Shown here one piece after another: positions 9,263 through 20,817 of a stretch of DNA of 28,407 nucleotides. Under the pieces are notes generated by a model. The model worked only from the letters and a program-made list of their open reading frames with translations, was not told where the DNA came from and searched no databases. The DNA comes from a virus. Taxonomy: Duplodnaviria > Heunggongvirae > Uroviricota > Caudoviricetes. The DNA lies in the IMG/VR virus record IMGVR_UViG_2778260996_000020, positions 1 to 28,407 of that record, one strand, 5' to 3'. The first letter of the stretch is position 1. Each line of letters starts with the position of its first letter. The translations under genes were made by a program, and so were the position numbers.

Positions 9263-9559
9263 TTAAAACTCCATGAATTTAAAATATTCAACACCACCTT
9301 CACCCCCTAAACCAAAGGAGACGGTGCAGCCAGCAGGAACAAACGAATTTATAGTAGATCCCCAATTGGTCCCACCACGACGACGAGCAACGGTCAAACC
9401 ATCTACGTTAATATGTGCATCAGACCACCCACCACCAGCATTATGACGCATTACAGCGACACCAGCACGAGCAGTACCATAGCCGTTAGGAATATCAAAT
9501 ACATGCCATTTTAAAGCATCGATTTTAGTATTAATTTCACTACTTACCCAATATCCCAT
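9263..9559 (-). CDS. Hypothetical protein, FDIPNGW-motif paralog 1 of 3, 98 aa
   Basis: VFDIPNGY motif, Gly-rich, C-terminal YFKF. TAAGGA SD. Immediately downstream of the fiber gene. Confidence 0.55.
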   Translation of the reverse strand: MGYWVSSEINTKIDALKWHVFDIPNGYGTARAGVAVMRHNAGGGWSDAHINVDGLTVARRRGGTNWGSTINSFVPAGCTVSFGLGGEGGVEYFKFMEF

Positions 9560-9597
9560 ATAAGAATCCTTAGCGGAGATTTCTCCCCGCTTTCCAA

Positions 9598-12500
9598 TTA
9601 CCCTAATTTAGCTTCAATTGCAGCAAGACGTTCACGAAGAAGTTTATTTTCTTCGCTCATTTCTTGGACCGCTTTAATTAAAAGCGCGTTCACTGCGGAG
9701 TTTGAAATTGTTAAAATTTCTTCTGGGTTATCAAAACCACCAATTTTTGCGGTTTTAACAGCTTCCGGTAATACCTCTTGTAAATCCTGTGCGATAATAC
9801 CAATCTCATGACCTATAACTTCTCGGTCATTAAGAGATTTAACTTTATCGTAGGTTTTAACTTTGAGTTTATTTACCTTATCCACCGCATTTTCTTCGTA
9901 ATCTTCAACATTAATTTTCAGACGACGATCGGAACGAATATAAACATCGTTAAAGTTTCCGTTACCAGTGGCATGAAATTCTCCACTTGCATGGAATTGA
10001 TAATCAGCACCCTGAACATGAAGAACCGCTGCCGCAGTATTATTACCATCACCCGGACAATGAACGTCCATAGCAGCGATATATTGACGCCCCCAATCAA
10101 CCGCTTTCCAAACAGCATGAGCACTGTCAATACTTTTCTGGCAGTCAACCAACAAACCAGCAGGGCGGTCTCTCCATGCAACATATGCACCACCATCAAC
10201 TTCACCACGGATAAGTCCTTGATCTGCGGCATAAGGAACACGCCCTTCCAGTTTAATCATCGCGCCCTGGAAGTGATGTGTAAATTGTCCACCGTGGTTA
10301 TTGCGAATATGTAAAATACCCTCATCTGTAGCCCAGATAACAGCCTTTTCCGTATCGCTATCATCTCTAAACCAGACGTGGCGAGCACCAGCAGAGTTTT
10401 TGATAGTAATCCCGGAAGGTCCATGCACAGTAAAAGCGCCAGCAACATCAAACATCAAACTGTTATCTGTCCTACGTTCAGTATAGAAGTGATAACCTTT
10501 GGAATCACCGACTTCCATCACTGCCGCGCGACCAACTTCTGAATTTCCCCAATTATTAATAGAGAATCGTTCAGAGCTATTATTCATCTGATTTAGGTAT
10601 AATGTACCATCAGTGAATGTTTCGCCAAAGAATCTGGTTTTAACGCCGTTAGTACCCCCCACGCGTTCAAATTCAGCCAAGAAACCTTTGGAATCTCGCA
10701 TACTCAAAACGTTATTGCGTCCTGTATTACTGTTACCCCAATGGATTAATTCAATATAGTCCATTGACTGACGAGACCCTGATCTAAACACCATATTATC
10801 TTCGATGCGGGTGCTACCATCAATTCCCAGATGTAAACAGCGTGCGGTAGCTGTGCCACCTAGATCTAATCCACCTTCGGCGAAATCATAACTAAATGGT
10901 CTACGAGTATTCCACGTCCCAAAGGAATCTTTTAAATCGGTAGTAAGAATATGGAAGCTAGAACCATCATTACGAAGGATTAAACCATAGTTACCACCTT
11001 TAACAGCCAAACGAGCATTTTCAGATAATGCAACTTCGCTATTCATTACAATTTTCTGGCCTCTACCGCCAGTAATATGTAATTCACCGTCTTCAATCAG
11101 GTTTATAGAGTTTTGACCGTTGTCGTTCCACCAAATAAAATCTTTGGTCTGACCATCACCGAAGCCAAACCAGCCATTACGAACATCTTGTCCAGTGCGA
11201 TAATCCATGAAATTAAAATGACTTGATTCGTTTGGTCCTCGACGAATATCAATACCAGCATTAGAACCGGAACCTAAGCCACCATCGATGGTCAATCTAC
11301 GAATATGCAAACCAGTCCCAGAAGACAACAATAGTTGTTGACCTGAGTCTGTACCTCCAGTGGCAAGACGATAATTCTGGTCATCAACGGTTTCATGCCA
11401 GATTGTCGCGCTGGCAGAGCTTCGAAACCGACGCAACATCTTTTTAGCATTTGTCGGTTGTTCGTTCATATGCTCAATGTCATATTGTCCTTGATGGTTT
11501 CCAGCAAAGTTTAACGTCCCACGGTTGCTAAAGTTATTGAACGATGAAATGTTAAGAGCATCAAAAATTTCGTCTGCAACAGGTTTTTCACCACCCAGAT
11601 ATTCAGGAGTATCCAACAGGTTTAAAGAAACACCACCGGAAGAAACTTGATATTCTGCTAAAACAAATCCTGTATGTGCACCGTAGTAAGCGTAAAGATC
11701 GTAATTGTCGCCATCGGTTGGAATAGCGCAAAAATGTTGTTCATAATGCCAAATAGTATAATACGCATTGAATACAACACCTTTCGGGCTATTGTTGCCG
11801 CATCGAATCACCAATTCGATAATATTGGCTTGTCCATTATGTCCTACGTTATAACCGTTACCACCAACCAAACGGATCTTAGCCGTGCGACCGTGTTGTT
11901 GTGGCATTGTCAAAGTGCCTAGTTTAAACCAACCACCCTCGATACCAAAATTAAGCGTCTTCTGGAACAGTCGGTCAATTTCTGCTTTCGAATATGCGCC
12001 AATTTCAGCCGGAGTAGGTTTATCGCCTTCATGATACATGCGGTGAGAATATGACAAATTACCTAATTCATCATAGCCGTATGTTCTTACAGTAGCATGT
12101 GGATTAGACCCATAAGTGAACTCGAAGCCACGAGCATGATTAACACCAGATGGATGCGGAACATGCAAGATCATTGCAATATGACCCGCCAGGTCATTCA
12201 TGCGGAATGCACCAAAGTAATCAAGATTACGCGCATTTGGATCATCAAAATAGTTTGCGGTCTTAGACAGCAAATAACCATCAGTATAAGTGTTTACGTG
12301 TTTTTTGATGTACTTGCCATCAGCAGATCCATCGGCTGCATCAATACGGCTTTCTAAACGTGCCAGTTCAGAATCAGTGTAAGACTTGTTATTGTCAACT
12401 TTGCTATGAATTGCTGTATTTTTGGCTTCAACATCACGGGTTAATGCTGCGACGTTATCCGCTGCCTCTTGCTTATTGGCTGCAATCACACCAGTAAGGT

Positions 12501-12963
12501 TATTGTAGGTGTCAGTTAACTGATTTTCCGCATAGACTTTATTTGCTGCGATAGTGCGGTCAGTTTCTGCCTTAATCAAATCAACCTTGTCATTGATTGC
12601 TTTGTCATTGCTTGCGATGGTTGCATCGGTGCGGGATTTAATATCATCAACTTTATTGTTAATTTCTGCGTGATTTGCTGCGATGGTTGCATCAGTAGTT
12701 TGTTTAATTTCATCTACTTTAGCGTGAATATTGCGGTCATTTACTGCAATTGTGCTATCTAGTTCTTGTTTGTTAGCATCAACTTTAGATTCTAGTGCCG
12801 CGTGAGTTTCAGGAGAAACAGAGATTTGAACTACTTCATGATCTCGGTCTTTGGTAAAAATAACATGGTCTTTAAGGTTGATTGCTACCTCACCGACCTG
12901 TAATTGTTCCGGCGTTGGTTTTTTGCCAGAAACATTAGTTCGTTTAAATTGGATTGATTGCAT
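9598..12963 (-). CDS. Tail/neck fiber protein with C-terminal intramolecular chaperone (peptidase S74-type) domain, 1121 aa
   Basis: C-terminal ~120 aa carry the Ser-Lys autoproteolysis motif SDRRLK followed by IGHEIGIIAQDLQEVLPEAV and a terminal coiled coil, typical of endosialidase / L-shaped-fiber chaperone domains. N-terminal ~150 aa of degenerate coiled-coil repeats (VDxIKxxTDATIAAN). Gly-rich central region. GAGGTGA SD. Confidence 0.8.
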   Translation of the reverse strand: MQSIQFKRTNVSGKKPTPEQLQVGEVAINLKDHVIFTKDRDHEVVQISVSPETHAALESKVDANKQELDSTIAVNDRNIHAKVDEIKQTTDATIAANHAEINNKVDDIKSRTDATIASNDKAINDKVDLIKAETDRTIAANKVYAENQLTDTYNNLTGVIAANKQEAADNVAALTRDVEAKNTAIHSKVDNNKSYTDSELARLESRIDAADGSADGKYIKKHVNTYTDGYLLSKTANYFDDPNARNLDYFGAFRMNDLAGHIAMILHVPHPSGVNHARGFEFTYGSNPHATVRTYGYDELGNLSYSHRMYHEGDKPTPAEIGAYSKAEIDRLFQKTLNFGIEGGWFKLGTLTMPQQHGRTAKIRLVGGNGYNVGHNGQANIIELVIRCGNNSPKGVVFNAYYTIWHYEQHFCAIPTDGDNYDLYAYYGAHTGFVLAEYQVSSGGVSLNLLDTPEYLGGEKPVADEIFDALNISSFNNFSNRGTLNFAGNHQGQYDIEHMNEQPTNAKKMLRRFRSSASATIWHETVDDQNYRLATGGTDSGQQLLLSSGTGLHIRRLTIDGGLGSGSNAGIDIRRGPNESSHFNFMDYRTGQDVRNGWFGFGDGQTKDFIWWNDNGQNSINLIEDGELHITGGRGQKIVMNSEVALSENARLAVKGGNYGLILRNDGSSFHILTTDLKDSFGTWNTRRPFSYDFAEGGLDLGGTATARCLHLGIDGSTRIEDNMVFRSGSRQSMDYIELIHWGNSNTGRNNVLSMRDSKGFLAEFERVGGTNGVKTRFFGETFTDGTLYLNQMNNSSERFSINNWGNSEVGRAAVMEVGDSKGYHFYTERRTDNSLMFDVAGAFTVHGPSGITIKNSAGARHVWFRDDSDTEKAVIWATDEGILHIRNNHGGQFTHHFQGAMIKLEGRVPYAADQGLIRGEVDGGAYVAWRDRPAGLLVDCQKSIDSAHAVWKAVDWGRQYIAAMDVHCPGDGNNTAAAVLHVQGADYQFHASGEFHATGNGNFNDVYIRSDRRLKINVEDYEENAVDKVNKLKVKTYDKVKSLNDREVIGHEIGIIAQDLQEVLPEAVKTAKIGGFDNPEEILTISNSAVNALLIKAVQEMSEENKLLRERLAAIEAKLG

Positions 12964-13034
12964 CTAATCACCTCACATAAAACAGGAATAAGGGAGGCGT
13001 TAACCTCCCCGTCATGTTTTATTTAGAGAAGCAA

Positions 13035-13868
13035 TCAGTATTCCCCGAAATCGATCCGGTCATGGATAGAAACGGCTTCAATCTCGGCTGGTGTCGGTTT
13101 TTCTTCTGTGGAATACAATTTCACCCATCCAGAATTACCGTCTTTCTGGACTGTGCGAACTCGTAAACGTGGTGCGCCGGAAGCGGTGCAAGTTAATTGC
13201 CATCCACCATCTTCATTAGGTTGAACGTGAATTAGTGAAGTATCAGCACTAAATGGGTTAGATGCGCTCGATCCCTGATAGGTTACGAAACGGTTTCCGG
13301 CTAATGCTTCGCTATCAATCGGACCTGTGAATGGGCTAATTCCCGCGCCAACACCATACATACCTTGCCGTAAAATAGCCCCCTCGGTCGCTATACCCCT
13401 TGCAAGAATCCCGCCATCTGGTTCAAGTTTAAATTCCAGTGTTACAGCTTTGTTATCACTACCACGGGTTTTGTGACTAGTGACATAAGCGTCATAGATG
13501 ACATAGTAACCAGTGTTAGCAGCACTATAGCCAGAGTTCACAACATAGAACATTCGGAAGCGTAAAGGTGTTTTATCCTCTACCGCTTTCATCAACATGT
13601 CTTGATGTTCGTCATCCAGAACACGGTTTACTACTAACGTAGTTGATTCAAGTTTACGATAACCAGCAAGTTTCCCCGTAGCGTCCTGATCATACTCTTC
13701 TAACGTCTGGATCTCTGTAGATTCGGTTATCGTCGGGAATGCTGCGATGTTCTCGATAGGACTAAATGCAGGATCGAAAAAGTCCGGCTGGTTATCCACC
13801 ATAGTAGACACGGAGACTTCAACATGCGACCCCGTGAAAATGTCTAAGTTATCTTGTGTAATATTCAT
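13035..13868 (-). CDS. Hypothetical virion structural protein, 277 aa (possible fiber-associated / neck protein)
   Basis: Lies in the head-to-tail junction region. C-terminal KPTPAEIEAVS motif recurs in the adjacent fiber protein (DKPTPAEIGAYS; N-terminal KKPTPEQLQVGE). Confidence 0.45.
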   Translation of the reverse strand: MNITQDNLDIFTGSHVEVSVSTMVDNQPDFFDPAFSPIENIAAFPTITESTEIQTLEEYDQDATGKLAGYRKLESTTLVVNRVLDDEHQDMLMKAVEDKTPLRFRMFYVVNSGYSAANTGYYVIYDAYVTSHKTRGSDNKAVTLEFKLEPDGGILARGIATEGAILRQGMYGVGAGISPFTGPIDSEALAGNRFVTYQGSSASNPFSADTSLIHVQPNEDGGWQLTCTASGAPRLRVRTVQKDGNSGWVKLYSTEEKPTPAEIEAVSIHDRIDFGEY

Positions 13869-13877
13869 TATTACCCC

Positions 13878-14300
13878 TTAAAAACGCGCTACATAAGAAA
13901 ATTTAAGGCTAAGTGTCCCAACGATACCCCCATCACTAGAATCATCGTCATAATCGGTATTAGAAGCTACTGGAGTGATATCTGAAATAGAGAAGCCCAA
14001 ATCTTTAAATCGTGGGTTATCCGGCTGAATCTGGATTATCTGGCAAATACCCTCATGAATTTTGGTTTCATGATTCTGAGAATACAACTGCATTTCGATA
14101 ACGCATTCAGCTTGCATTGCATTACCACCACGAACACGCGTATAAGTCTCATTCATTCCAGTAATCCAACAAACCACGTCATCACTAAAGCCTTGCTGAG
14201 TTTGTTCTACGTTTAAAGCCAGACCTAAATCTTGTTCGATAATATCCTGCAAGGCGCGTTTGATTTTCAGTCTAGGCATATTATTAACGGTAGCGAGCAT
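13878..14300 (-). CDS. Hypothetical head-tail connector/completion protein, ~141 aa
   Basis: Track ORF 13878-14381 trimmed to the ATG at 14300 (AGGGGG SD), which removes most of the overlap with the upstream ORF. Position between capsid and tail genes. Confidence 0.4.
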   Translation of the reverse strand: MLATVNNMPRLKIKRALQDIIEQDLGLALNVEQTQQGFSDDVVCWITGMNETYTRVRGGNAMQAECVIEMQLYSQNHETKIHEGICQIIQIQPDNPRFKDLGFSISDITPVASNTDYDDDSSDGGIVGTLSLKFSYVARF

Positions 14301-14574
14301 GTGTACCCCCTGCACGAGCAATAAAGCAATCAGAAGTATTATCACCATTGCGCTTAACGTATTGAACTTTGAAGCGTTCACCGTCTACAATGACAACATC
14401 ACCCTGATTTAAGTTTCCCTCACGACAAAATAGAAATTCTGATTCTGTAATTACCCCCTGTTCGTCGGTAGTAGTAATTTCATGGTAAGCACGAATTGAT
14501 TTACCACCTTCCACCGAAAATACAGGAGCACTTTTAAACATTCTTGATAATTGTGATTCTGATAATTTGAACAT
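14284..14574 (-). CDS. Hypothetical head-tail connector protein, 96 aa
   Basis: First ORF after the capsid gene terminator. AAGGGGG SD. Function by position only. Confidence 0.4.
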   Translation of the reverse strand: MFKLSESQLSRMFKSAPVFSVEGGKSIRAYHEITTTDEQGVITESEFLFCREGNLNQGDVVIVDGERFKVQYVKRNGDNTSDCFIARAGGTHARYR

Positions 14575-14603: not shown

Positions 14604-14631
14604 CAAAAAAGCCCCACCGTTAGGCAGGGCT
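14604..14631 (-). terminator. Intrinsic terminator downstream of capsid gene
   Basis: Minus-strand RNA: AGCCCUGCC-UAAC-GGUGGGGCU hairpin (9 bp with two G-U pairs) followed by UUUUUUG. Confidence 0.65.
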
Positions 14632-14768: not shown

Positions 14769-16772
14769 TCATTCAGAGATATGAAGAACTTTCAGAGCTT
14801 CCGGCTGGGTTACAACGTAATCCAGATCTACCCAGATACGCGGAACAATTGCGGACTGTGCACGGTAGGTGGTGTCGTCCATATCCAGTTCCAGACCGCC
14901 CCACTCACCGATAGTAATACCGGAGAAGTCACCCAGAACGATGTGGTCTGCCGGAATAACACCAGAAGTAACTACTTCGTAACCAGCCAGTTTGCCGTTT
15001 TCGATGATATAACCGGAAACGCCGTTATCTTTCAGGGTAGATTCCAGTTCAGCAGCAGTTGCACCGCTCATTGCAAACTTGATGGACTGTGCCGGAACGC
15101 CAGCGTCGGTCAGTTTAGCAATTTCTTTCAGGAAGTCTTTGTAGGTGAAAGCAGCTTTCTTCTCAACGCGGCTAGCGTCTACCAGTTGTTTAACCAGACC
15201 AGCCGGACCACGATCGTTAGCTTTATCAGACAGAATCAGTTGTTCCAGTTTGATACGAACAGCCTGGTTGATGTGATCAGTGATCAGGGTAGCGATACCC
15301 GGAACGGTTTTAATGCTCTGACGGCTGATCGGGTTGCCACCAGCAAAAGTCTTAGGAGACAGTTTCACGTTTGCAAATTCAGCTTTGCCTTCCGGTGCAG
15401 CACCGTTTTCATCAACGAAGCCGAAAGCGTCAACGCTGGATTTAGTCATTTTTGGAATAGCGGTCGGAGCAGTCAAGCCACTGTAAACAGTCACACCCAG
15501 ACGACCCAGAACGGATTCCGGCATCAGCATTTCGATGTAGGATTCAGTCATCAGTTTTTCATCGGTGATAGCAGTCAGGTCAGCTTTGGTGTTACCAGCA
15601 GCAGCAGCACGCATAGCAGCAGCCGGAACGAATACAGAGCCACCACGAGCAGCACGACCACGCTGCATAGTTGCAGTAGCAGCCATCGCAGAAAACTCGG
15701 CTTCGTGAGCACCCAGAGCTTCACCATCTACCAGAGAGCGAATTACGTTGTTCAGGTCAAAAGTTTTTTCCATTTTAGAGTCCTTAATTTGTTGTTCGTT
15801 ATTACGTTGAGCATTGACGAGATTATTTAGTGCCTTAGTGCGGAATGCTTCCGGCGTCATATCTTTAACTGCCAATGCGCGTTCTAATTCTTCGTCGTTA
15901 ATATTTAGTTCGCGAGCTATCTCGCGAATTTCTAATTCGTCTTCTTCGGAACGTTCAGCCACTTCCTCGATTTTTTCTTCTTCAACCGGAGCGGCTTCAC
16001 GTTCTTCTTTTACTTCTTCTGCTTCCCGAACAGTTGAACTATCATCATCAACACTTTCAGGATGTTCAGCGTCTTTTCCGTCTTCGAGATTTTCATCTTC
16101 TTTATTCTCTTCAACTTGGCGCTCTTGAGTTTCTTCTACTTCCGGTTCTTTAATTTCTTCTACCGGAGTTTCTTCAACCTGAGCGGGTTCTTGTTCTTCT
16201 TTGATTTCTTCGATTTGTTCTTTAGTCATATCGCGTTTAGCCTCCAAATTAACTGTGATAGTATTTAGAGAGCGATTTAAACCGACCGTATCGTCAGCAG
16301 GAACGGTAACGAAACTTAATTCGTATGGTGCCCACTTAGTAACAATTAATTGCCCTTTGGCGTAATCGATGTGATATTCTTTAATGTCATAACCGACAGA
16401 AATTTTTTCCATCGTACCTTCAATGACTTTATTGCGAATATCATTAGCCAAAGTCCCATGCTTGGAGAATTTAACCAGAGCACGACCTACGTTATCCGCA
16501 TCGATTCGAGCGTTACAAACAACACCAATGTGATTATCGAAATTATGATTGAACAGCAACGGAGCGTTATTATTCAGACGAGACAGATCAACCGCTTCCG
16601 GTGTATGTACCAGAATTTCATCTAATACCACCATTTCTTGATTTTGCTCATCCCAAAATTGGCGCTGATAAGGCTGTGTACTTGAGAAAGCAATTTCAAA
16701 TTCGTATTGATCGTTATGCCCTTCGTTAATAACTCCACCGTAACCGTTAAGATCGCGGCGAAATTTAAGCAT
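14769..16772 (-). CDS. Fused prohead protease (HK97 S78-like) - acidic scaffold-like linker - HK97-fold major capsid protein, 667 aa
   Basis: N-terminal ~170 aa resemble a prohead protease domain. Central ~130 aa are extremely Glu-rich and coiled-coil-like. C-terminal ~330 aa resemble an HK97-type major capsid protein. AAAGGTGA SD. Directly downstream of portal. Confidence 0.75.
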   Translation of the reverse strand: MLKFRRDLNGYGGVINEGHNDQYEFEIAFSSTQPYQRQFWDEQNQEMVVLDEILVHTPEAVDLSRLNNNAPLLFNHNFDNHIGVVCNARIDADNVGRALVKFSKHGTLANDIRNKVIEGTMEKISVGYDIKEYHIDYAKGQLIVTKWAPYELSFVTVPADDTVGLNRSLNTITVNLEAKRDMTKEQIEEIKEEQEPAQVEETPVEEIKEPEVEETQERQVEENKEDENLEDGKDAEHPESVDDDSSTVREAEEVKEEREAAPVEEEKIEEVAERSEEDELEIREIARELNINDEELERALAVKDMTPEAFRTKALNNLVNAQRNNEQQIKDSKMEKTFDLNNVIRSLVDGEALGAHEAEFSAMAATATMQRGRAARGGSVFVPAAAMRAAAAGNTKADLTAITDEKLMTESYIEMLMPESVLGRLGVTVYSGLTAPTAIPKMTKSSVDAFGFVDENGAAPEGKAEFANVKLSPKTFAGGNPISRQSIKTVPGIATLITDHINQAVRIKLEQLILSDKANDRGPAGLVKQLVDASRVEKKAAFTYKDFLKEIAKLTDAGVPAQSIKFAMSGATAAELESTLKDNGVSGYIIENGKLAGYEVVTSGVIPADHIVLGDFSGITIGEWGGLELDMDDTTYRAQSAIVPRIWVDLDYVVTQPEALKVLHISE

Positions 16773-18909: not shown

Positions 18910-20817
18910 TTAGAACGATGTTACCCAGCTACGGCCTCTATTTGGGCGTCTGGCGATGTTTTGACGTTGCGGTCGTGTGATTGGCTTAGTTTCTTCGATT
19001 TGCTCGTTAGATTGCGATTTAGGAGCTTCTACGGATTCTTCAACAACACGGTTTAAGCTGTCTTTCATTGCAATGAGTTTATCCCATGACATTTTTGAAA
19101 GGACGTAGCGAGAAGCCGCATAGCTATAAACCAGACAGTCGAGAGCCTCGTTTCGGGTACTACCTGGATTTTTCACCCAACGCACGCCAGTAGTAGTACG
19201 CTTGATGGATTCACTCAAAAGCTGATCGAGATAATCATCAGGAACGGTTTCTGATATTTCTAAGCCAATATGAGGATTATCTTTCAGGTTTCTAACCAGC
19301 ATTTCACGAACAGCGGATTTGCCAACGTTAACACCCAACATAAGCAATTCATGACCACCTGTGCGGGTAGGTTTAACCGGAATCACTGGAGCATTACCAG
19401 ATGAACTACCTTTGATCGCGTGTAGGTTCTTCCACTTGCCGCAAATACGGTATCCGGCTTGAGTGAATCGACCGTTCGATGTATCAAGGAAGCTGGCGAG
19501 CATAGGAACACGTTCACCCTTAACGTTATAGAATTTGGTTTTCTTGAAGTTAACCAGACGATCCCAAACAGGTGATTCATATCGTTCACAGTTATGATCG
19601 TAAAAGCTGCGGTGATCCAGAATGTAAACCTTATCTTTCGCTACACCTAAGATGGTAGATTCTGCGCGGTCCAATTGCTGGTCAATTCCTGAACACAAGA
19701 AAATAACGTCATCAGGAATATTCTCGATAGAAACATCTGTTTTGAGTTGTTCCAGTTCATTTGCTTCTACTGCCGTGTCCTGATCGTCGTACACCTTACC
19801 TAATACGGTGTTAAAAAATGATTGTAAATCAAAGGATTGCCACGCATGACTAAAATCAACCACACAAGCGCGGATCGTGCTGAAAGGTGAATACAGACGG
19901 CTGATCCAGAATCCTGCTACCTCACTTTCGCGGGTTGCTCTCCACTCGCCTTGCGCTACTGCCCTGATTCGTTCCCCTTCTGTCCATGCGTTCTTACAGT
20001 GGGGGCAAATATAACGAGCGGTATCAGGATCGGGTAAGTTCTTACCATCGATGTTACGCCATTCAAATTGAACGTTTTCCCACTCGATCACCTGGTGTTC
20101 CCCGCAATGCGGACACGGAACAAAAAACATACGCATATCGCTTGATAACCATTGCTGGTTAATGCTTCCGAGCTTACTGGTCGGGGTACTGGATACGACT
20201 AATCGGCCTTCATCGCCAAAGGTAGTTAAACGGTTAGCAGCCAGTGCCACCGGATCACCTTCTTCTGAGGCTGTAGCAGCATCGATTTCGTCTAGTAGTC
20301 CGACCTTTGCAGTCTTACCGCGCAGGGTTGATGGACTGGTAAGCGATACCATGTACAGGAAGTGATTCGTTTTTAGCTGGAGTTGGTTATTGTTGTTAAC
20401 CGCATTGCGATCATTCTTGTCTGTAACCACGTCTTTTAATGCATCACATGCTTCGATAGACGGTCGGATCTTACCAGCGAGATATTGAGACATTTCTTTA
20501 GCGGTTGATTGTCCGATAATCATATTGCATGGATCGTTAGCCATCTGGTTAAACAGGATGCCATTCAGGATGGTAGTCTTTCCGATCTGCGCACTGGTCA
20601 TCAGAACATACTTTTTCTTGTTCTCAAGGAAAGGAGCATCAATCATACCTTTCTGGAATGACAGCAATTTAACTTTATCCCCAGCTTGAGGACCATCTAC
20701 CAGCACCATATTAGCTTCGCACCATTCCGATGGAAGGAGTTTAGGCGGTGGCGTAATATATTTGGCTGCATTTCTGAGAATCTTTTTTAATTTGGCCTTA
20801 TTAGAAATTAGTTTCAT
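18910..20817 (-). CDS. terL: Terminase large subunit (GpA-like), 635 aa
   Basis: Walker A-like SAQIGKTT and Walker B-like VGLLDEID in the N-terminal ATPase half. Cys-x2-Cys pairs (CPHCGEHQ...CPHCKNAW). Acidic nuclease-like C-terminal half. GAGGGT SD. Confidence 0.85.

Follow-up and report, generated by a model that had tools for sequence, protein, structure and literature searches.

The long tail fibre of the T4-like phages is the closest described counterpart of the locus analysed here. In T4, the distal subunit of the fibre, gp37, is bound in its N-terminal part by trimers of gp36 (PMC3004832), and in T2 and T6 gp37 is cut at its C-terminus, after which gp38 caps the tip (PMC3157838). We analysed a fibre gene in IMG/VR virus record IMGVR_UViG_2778260996_000020, a stretch of 28,407 nucleotides from a member of the Caudoviricetes (the window, taken at its full length). 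An earlier note on this DNA had listed a 1121-aa protein at positions 9598-12963, and the open reading frame (ORF) is indeed present there, on the minus strand, with an ATG start and GAGGTGA ahead of it. The gene encodes, by its sequence, a homolog of the gp37 long-tail-fibre distal subunit, and it lies directly downstream of a gene for a 277-aa protein that appears to combine a tail-tube fold with a gp36-like end. We consider it likely that the product is the receptor-binding side fibre of a temperate, non-contractile-tailed Escherichia coli prophage, a gp37-type fibre docked on a ring of the tube paralog via gp36-like ends, processed by its Peptidase_S74 (S74) domain, capped, and exchanged as a cassette.

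According to this proposal, the tube-like domain of the 277-aa protein would be built into the tail as a ring, whose gp36-like C-terminal arms would trimerise and present the end IDFGEY. The N-terminal domain of the fibre would dock on this end as gp37 does on gp36. The S74 domain would drive trimerisation of the fibre from the C-terminus and then cut itself off at Ser1011 using the Ser1011-Lys1016 dyad, and the exposed tip would be capped by three small proteins with a predicted C1q/TNF-like fold, as gp38 caps processed gp37 in T2, T6 and S16. Cassette swaps with Krischvirus would retarget the host range of the prophage.

The distal half of the long tail fibre in T2, S16 and Krischvirus has the same gp37 joint domain, shaft and S74 chaperone with SDRR(I/L)K, together with genes in the gene 38 position; identity to the window reaches 82% for amino acids and locally 99.4% for nucleotides, and the partner protein of these fibres ends in ...DFGx[FY]. 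In contrast to these phages, the window phage is temperate and has a non-contractile tail without gp34 and gp35, and its gp36-like part is fused to a tail-tube paralog instead of hanging from a knee joint. Its fibre has a 172-aa stalk (read as helical) after the joint domain, and three proteins of ~100 aa, predicted to be C1q-like, are encoded in place of a 260-aa polyglycine gp38 adhesin.

The L-shaped fibre pb1 of T5, with its collar p132 and tube-like p140, is likewise a side fibre on an E. coli siphophage. pb1 is S74-processed, and p140 forms a specialised tube-fold ring at its attachment site. T5 differs from the window in having no gp36/gp37 joint and no fibre gene beside the tube-like gene. 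Its pb1 is anchored non-covalently at the distal end by a separate 12-mer collar protein (PMC12617516). Stf of Ur-lambda, together with Tfa, is also a side fibre of a lambda-like tail and swaps modules with T4 gp37 (PMC3157838). However, Stf has its own N-terminal collar domain, 12 copies of which surround the gpV/gpM junction (PMC12617516), its gene comes after J, and it uses a separate assembly chaperone and no S74 domain.

The fibre and its S74 chaperone domain

The whole fibre matches phrog_1699 ('long tail fiber protein distal subunit') with an E-value of 1e-138, and its first ~46 residues match positions 6-49 of the same family (E 9e-19). With these matches and the identities given below, the fibre is placed as a homolog of T4-family gp37. 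It can be divided into four parts, all encoded on the minus strand like the other structural genes of the window. Residues 1-55 (12799-12963) form a gp37-type N-terminal joint domain with the consensus IQFKR...GELAINL.D...TKD, which is the proposed socket for a gp36-type C-terminus. When aligned with the gp37 N-termini of T4, RB49, G37-3 and phiS, the positions R, G, P, GE, IN and D are invariant, and the domain is conserved among prophage relatives whose distal parts differ.

Residues 56-227 (12283-12798) form a stalk rich in Ala, Asp, Asn and Lys with three repeats of ~22 aa, which we read as helical from its sequence; at the DNA level no tandem repeat was found in it. The stalk is absent from Krischvirus gp37 and varies in length among the prophage relatives, with 55 aa more in strains TO6 and 14EC017. 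When fibre residues 1-234 were the query, a word-indexed homolog search returned eight proteins only. Residues 228-1010 (9934-12282) correspond to the gp37 shaft and tip and are the predicted mature distal part. Amino acid identity to Krischvirus phiS gp37 is 82.5% over residues 231-1110, and the shaft and tip are ~82% identical to gp37 of Skers and 77% to that of G37-3. The Pfam family Gp34_trimer matches residues 591-692, and a PDB sequence search matched the shaft and tip to T4 gp34 and to P2-type fibre structures. The fourth part, residues 1011-1121 (9601-9933), is by homology the S74 intramolecular chaperone with Ser1011 and Lys1016.

In the earlier note, SDRRLK and the sequence after it had been taken as an S74-type C-terminal chaperone signature, to be checked by alignment to Peptidase_S74 profiles, and both the profile and the motif agree with this assignment. 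PF13884 (Peptidase_S74) matches fibre residues 1011-1070 over its full length (profile 1-58 of 58; E 5e-15; 56 bits, with a curated cutoff of 22 bits), and SDRRLK occupies residues 1011-1016, followed by IGHEIGIIAQDLQEVLPEAV. Ser1011 (codon 9931-9933) and Lys1016 (codon 9916-9918) stand where the domain begins on its N-terminal side, at an interval of five residues, which is the spacing of the known Ser/Lys catalytic dyad, whose role is established from endoNF and T5 pb1. The C-terminal 150 aa of the fibre also align to S16 gp37 at E 5.5e-6 (chain 6F45_A, which has SSDRRIK), and further alignments were obtained with a second phage tail fibre (8jov) and the autoprocessing domain of MYRF (7dc3).

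Autoproteolytic release of the fibre C-terminus can be soundly inferred from this homology, and the predicted cut at Ser1011 would free 111 aa, so that the chaperone segment described earlier is retained and its length of ~120 aa is corrected. The endosialidase-type chaperones (K1F endoNF, MYRF) have in common with the window fibre a full profile match, Ser-x4-Lys at the start of the domain and a C-terminal helical region. The likeness is limited to the domain, as the passenger here is a gp37 fibre and not a sialidase or a transcription factor. By these features the fibre is of a kind already known, gp37-type and predicted to be S74-processed.

Two other interpretations of the gene were rejected. 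Fusion of the 277-aa gene with the fibre gene by read-through or frameshifting is contradicted by the ORFs, which are out of frame and separated by a 71-nt gap with a terminator-like hairpin (12991-13010, minus strand). The RefSeq label 'phage head spike fiber domain', attached to the EC24 homolog, presumably names the variable distal part, since only the first ~55 aa of that protein are common to the window fibre. NCBIfam contained nothing for the fibre, the 277-aa protein, the small proteins or a 140-aa protein encoded upstream.

The 277-aa tail-tube paralog and the proposed joint

The 277-aa protein (13035-13868, minus strand), the proposed fibre anchor, starts with a tail-tube paralog (aa ~6-164), continues with a middle domain and closes with a gp36-like C-terminus, the last residues of which are EKPTPAEIEAVSIHDRIDFGEY. 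When its family was compared using hhalign with that of the phage's own 156-aa tube protein, the alignment covered the entire tube protein (Prob 99.1, E 1.5e-18), and for this reason we consider the 277-aa protein a tube paralog. The paralogy was undetected by BLASTP alone and required profile comparison. The tube-protein fold is complete and includes the inter-ring hairpin region.

At the opposite end, the C-terminus of the 277-aa family aligns with that of gp36 to the very last residue (hhalign Prob 96, E 4.6e-9), and a 482-aa protein of a relative matches RB49 gp36 with E 1.7e-16. The window protein ends in ...EKPTPAEIEAVSIHDRIDFGEY (IDFGEY), Krischvirus gp36 in ...NKPTPADVGAVPLNAVIDFGTF and T4 gp36 in ...DSVQDFGYY. 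On the strength of these alignments, the C-terminal part of the 277-aa protein is regarded as homologous to the C-terminal region of gp36, including the terminal DFGx[FY].

The comparison covered 15 pairs of neighbouring upstream and downstream proteins, 12 of them from prophage joints, two from Krischviruses and one from T4. Without exception, D[FL]Gx[FYE] closes the upstream protein and a gp37-N domain opens the downstream one. The two sides co-vary, as an end of the form DFGE[YF] goes with a start of the form M[QK]S (7 of 7 pairs), and DFG[TY][FY] goes with MA[DTE][LI] (6 of 6). A relative in Proteus has a split fibre, with a 198-aa adaptor (gp37-N domain, stalk and a C-terminal DFGTF) followed by a 675-aa fibre that has its own gp37-N, and this phage contains two joints, one of each flavour. 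The pairing of a gp36-type tail and a gp37-type N-terminal domain points to a simple and portable way of linking the fibre to differing scaffolds, and such a joint, with two co-varying flavours in a single Proteus phage, would be directly useful for fibre engineering.

A scan of 1.84 billion representative proteins identified 330 relatives. More than 100 of these are 600-1500 aa long, with the tube paralog and middle domain in the first ~245 residues fused to a fibre. These fusions occur, for example, in Serratia, Rouxiella, Pantoea and Yersinia, and in Rouxiella no fibre gene other than the fusion lies in the interval from the neck genes to the tube gene. Because of such tube-fibre fusions, including the one that fills the slot in Rouxiella, the tube-like domain looks like a fibre anchor, and the comparison suggests that in the window lineage the fibre was cut from its anchor at a gp36/gp37-type joint.

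The complete tube fold with its inter-ring hairpin region would also fit a co-major tube protein or a tube decoration that recurs in many rings, in which case the tail would be lined with fibres or stubs; C-terminal display domains are frequent on major tail proteins. We consider this quite improbable. The gene directly before the chaperone pair, the canonical position of the major tube subunit, encodes the 156-aa protein (8128-8598, minus strand; phrog_158, E 1e-20, with weak matches to Pfam lambda TTP families) and not the 277-aa protein. A strong terminator-like hairpin follows the 156-aa gene at 8119-8100, and in one relative the 156-aa homolog has a C-terminal extension read as Ig-like from sequence. 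On account of its position, the hairpin and this extension, the 156-aa protein is preferred as the candidate major subunit. A tail with dozens of 1121-aa fibres would be expensive to build, and we know of no precedent for it.

Several points weigh against the proposal of a fibre docked on the ring of the tube paralog. The docking is deduced from homology, synteny and the co-variation in the 15 pairs, and the direct contact between the gp36 C-terminus and the gp37 N-terminus from the parallel N-to-C topology of the T4 fibre. When PDB was searched by sequence, neither the 277-aa protein nor Krischvirus gp36 as query retrieved a solved structure of gp36 or of the gp36-gp37 joint. Taken singly, the window 277-aa protein has a weak match to gp36 (28 aa, E 1.5e-4), the significance coming from the family profiles, and its AlphaFold2 (AF2) model is poor past residue 163. 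A hexameric tube ring would give two trimeric arms only, an unusual fibre number, and the cleavage, the capping and the production of virions by the prophage are predictions.

Using a literature search, we found no description of fibre anchoring via a tail-tube paralog fused to a gp36-like plug. More tentatively, and with the balance somewhat against it, the locus may represent an undescribed and widespread fibre mount of non-contractile tails. Here the duplicated tube protein would form a dedicated ring whose C-terminal arms either are the fibre itself or terminate in a gp36-type plug that takes any gp37-N fibre, temperate enterobacterial phages would swap whole cassettes with virulent T4-like phages, and the C1q-like three-paralog cap would be a new adhesin class that replaces gp38. 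If true, the tube-paralog anchor, found in more than 100 protein clusters, would be a third siphophage side-fibre attachment, beside the collars of lambda Stf and T5 p132.

Cassette exchange and the proteins in the gene 38 position

A block at 8637-12264, made up of the distal four fifths of the fibre gene plus the trio of small genes after it, is common to the window and virulent Krischvirus phages. Using blastn against G37-3, we obtained a single continuous alignment of 3.65 kb with 83.7% identity over 8637-12264 (86.9% with megablast), and positions 9292-9968 of the window are 99.4% identical in nucleotides to Krischvirus KFS-EC. In G37-3, the small genes come after gene 37, in the gene 38 position. 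Judging from these alignments, the block is exchanged as a cassette with virulent Krischvirus, recently and repeatedly. Prophage relatives retain the 277-aa gene and the first ~55-65 fibre codons and have other distal parts, for example a pyocin-knob S74 fibre without small genes, a fibre with a 259-aa gp38-type adhesin, or an 824-aa fibre with a second, S74-bearing fibre.

The TO6 prophage encodes a 70-aa ORF (L007, 2554-2766) that opens with 9 codons derived from the Krischvirus gene downstream of gene 38 and closes with the 53 terminal codons of small protein 3. By this composition, the ORF is a recombination scar, in which a Krischvirus gp37-gp38 cassette overwrote an older three-small-gene cassette, and it documents the direction of at least one exchange event. 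Krischvirus DNA has unmodified cytosine (PMC6563267), and exchange may thereby be eased. The T4 late-promoter motif TATAAATA is absent from the cassette. Fibres set the host range of phages, and near-identical receptor-binding cassettes (up to 99.4% in nucleotides) appear to move between a family of resident E. coli prophages and virulent T4-like phages, the type employed for therapy and biocontrol.

With part of the cassette 99.4% identical to a virulent phage, the fibre could also be absent from the virion of this prophage, being either a passenger cassette that was captured from a T4-like phage or a leftover in a prophage that is defective. Insertion sequence (IS) elements interrupt the region in some relatives, and some relatives are without tape measure genes. 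We regard this as highly improbable, because joint domain and stalk at the N-terminus are particular to the prophage lineage and stay conserved where the distal parts change, the slot is filled in every family member examined, the ORFs are intact, and the window contains no other side-fibre gene.

The three small genes are tandem paralogs on the minus strand that encode proteins of 98 aa (small protein 1, 9263-9559), 101 aa (small protein 2, 8955-9260) and 100 aa (small protein 3, 8653-8955). They are 95-99% identical to the Krischvirus G37-3 proteins, and small protein 1 is 99% identical in amino acids to the G37-3 protein encoded after gp37, in the gene 38 position. The family alignment showed an invariant Trp4 and a FDIPNG motif. 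The predicted structure, including that of small protein 2, has an N-terminal helix bearing Trp4 and a C1q/TNF-like jelly roll. The small proteins had no match in Pfam, PHROG or NCBIfam, and blastp comparison with the gp38-like proteins of phiS and TO6 gave nothing significant. In common with gp38 they have only the gene position and the N-terminal Trp helix, which recalls the Trp-bearing helices of the gp38 attachment domain; the combination of a Gp38_N attachment domain and a specificity domain with glycine-rich motifs was not found in them.

We suggest that the small proteins may cap the processed fibre tip. The proposal is based on T2 and T6, where gp37 is cleaved and then capped by gp38, on S16 gp37, which has SDRRIK, on the TO6 relative, which joins the same fibre end (...NGNFNDVYIR and then SDRRLK) with a gp38-type adhesin, and on the predicted fold of the small proteins, which fits this role. 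A literature search found no description of proteins of such a C1q-like fold in the gene 38 position, and they could be a new adhesin type, in T4-like phages too. The small-gene content of the cassettes varies. KFS-EC has one small ORF, in a gene that overlaps the match to the first small gene, RB49 is without small genes, and phiS carries a gp38 adhesin in their place.

Ring location, gene order and distribution of the prophage

The gene had been described earlier as lying between the capsid/connector genes and the tube gene and not after the tip genes. This position is correct, although the neighbour read as a connector is a tube-fold protein and the three small genes intervene before the tube gene. 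The further claim of a fibre inside the head-tail junction module did not hold, as the gene follows a tail-tube paralog with a gp36-like C-terminus. As to the attachment, the choice offered had been between a neck or collar fibre and a side fibre anchored near the tail tube. Homology (the tube paralog and its gp36-like end) favours the tube-anchored side fibre, and a neck location is possible with the same anchoring. We give a head-proximal and a distal location of the ring about equal weight, with a slight preference for the head-proximal one.

If the ring were the last one under the tail terminator, the fibres would radiate from the head-tail junction as neck or collar fibres. Lambda-type modules encode head-proximal tail parts after the post-capsid genes and before the tube gene, and the order of paralog and fibre is conserved at this place in 12 of 12 family members examined. 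The extra stalk of 172-227 aa would lengthen the reach of a fibre anchored so high. Taken by itself this location is doubtful. By rough estimates the fibre measures ~70 nm and the tail ~120-130 nm (from the 809-aa tape measure), which puts the tip plane out of reach, and the 140-aa protein encoded upstream is not identifiable as a terminator, leaving the list of neck parts incomplete. Known neck appendages (T4 fibritin whiskers, phi29 gp12*, the lactococcal neck passage structure and the XM1 collar spike) are likewise encoded near or attached at the head-tail junction, and phi29 gp12* self-cleaves a C-terminal chaperone, but no meaningful relation in sequence or fold to the window fibre was found. 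Searches of Pfam, PHROGs, NCBIfam and PDB found no homology of the fibre to a neck-binding domain. A match to the XM1 collar spike (E 0.14) was discarded as a generic fibre motif outside the neck-binding domain; XM1 binds the neck through an Ig-like domain (PMC10457771).

Ur-lambda and T5, the two E. coli siphophages with solved structures, have their side fibres mounted at the tube/Dit junction (PMC12617516), which argues against the neck and for a distal location. In that case the ring would be the first on the Dit protein, like T5 p140, with fibres around the tip as for lambda Stf and T5 pb1, and the estimated lengths of fibre and tail would agree with this arrangement. It is no more probable than the head-proximal one, as the gene precedes the tube gene, a long way from those for Dit and hub, and no sequence feature ties it to the Dit-like protein.

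Irrespective of the location of the ring, the module in which we propose the tube-anchored fibre has a lambda/gene transfer agent (GTA)-like order, with all structural genes on the minus strand. It starts with the gpA-type terminase (18910-20817), followed by a 165-aa head-tail joining-like protein, the portal, the protease-major capsid fusion (14769-16772), a 96-aa FII-like protein and the 140-aa protein (13878-14381; the ORF has 167 aa from an upstream GTG). After the 277-aa gene, the fibre gene, the three ~100-aa genes (8653-9559) and the 156-aa tube gene come the chaperone pair, the 809-aa tape measure, the Dit-like, hub-like and DUF6950 proteins and, last, a J-like tip protein (1063 aa; 1-3192). 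In its C-terminal third, the tip protein has a long stretch rich in Ala, Thr and Lys, where repeats (...ATKIDQVKAELKGDITKEVSASATTLKQAIATSEAASASKIDQVRVEMDGK...) similar to those of the fibre stalk occur. We found no homologs of gp34 or gp35 and no sheath or baseplate genes within the window, and its tail module is unlike the contractile-tail baseplate that carries the four-protein hinged fibre.

The 140-aa protein, whose gene separates the FII-like gene from that of the tube paralog, is conserved throughout the family and was left unclassified by permissive Pfam and PHROGs searches and NCBIfam, and its four-sequence profile found nothing in PDB. By position it may be a tail terminator or completion protein; as a tail terminator it was not confirmed by the Pfam, PHROG or PDB searches.

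A chromosomal prophage of ~38 kb matches the window at 92-95% identity and is present in ~60 of 5426 complete E. coli genomes; strain 14EC017 carries it within hicB, beside a recombinase gene. The slot order, with paralog and fibre after two small post-capsid genes (one FII-like) and before the tube gene, is kept in all 12 related elements examined. In several prophage copies (including L001, 21263-22375 and 12864-13561), the fibre region is broken up or bordered by IS421, IS1, IS3 and IS903B and a gene for a GIY-YIG nuclease, and many copies may therefore be inactive; the copy in E. coli PK8568 is free of IS insertions.

Only one of 50,697 phage records, Escherichia phage DCP80, has a related backbone. 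This 141-kb record (GenBank PQ671644; L004, positions 1-22000) is classified as a T4-like Gaprivervirus and opens with a siphophage-type head and tail module related to the prophage, with a capsid protein 46% identical; it is probably a chimeric assembly. Its 698-aa protein is a tube paralog joined directly to a fibre.

Elements in Enterobacter hormaechei (L010, 12747-17592) and Klebsiella pneumoniae (L016, 13338-15188) keep the terminase, portal, capsid, tube paralog, S74 fibre and 156-aa tube protein. They are without the chaperones, tape measure, Dit and hub, and DUF6950 and the tip protein follow directly after the tube gene. No fusion of hub and tip protein was found in the Enterobacter relative without a tape measure. 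These elements are either a conserved defective remnant or encode a tail made without a tape measure.

Terminator-like hairpins on the minus strand follow the capsid gene (14610-14631), the 277-aa gene (12991-13010) and the tube gene (8100-8119). Those after the capsid and tube genes are the pattern expected of highly expressed major structural genes.

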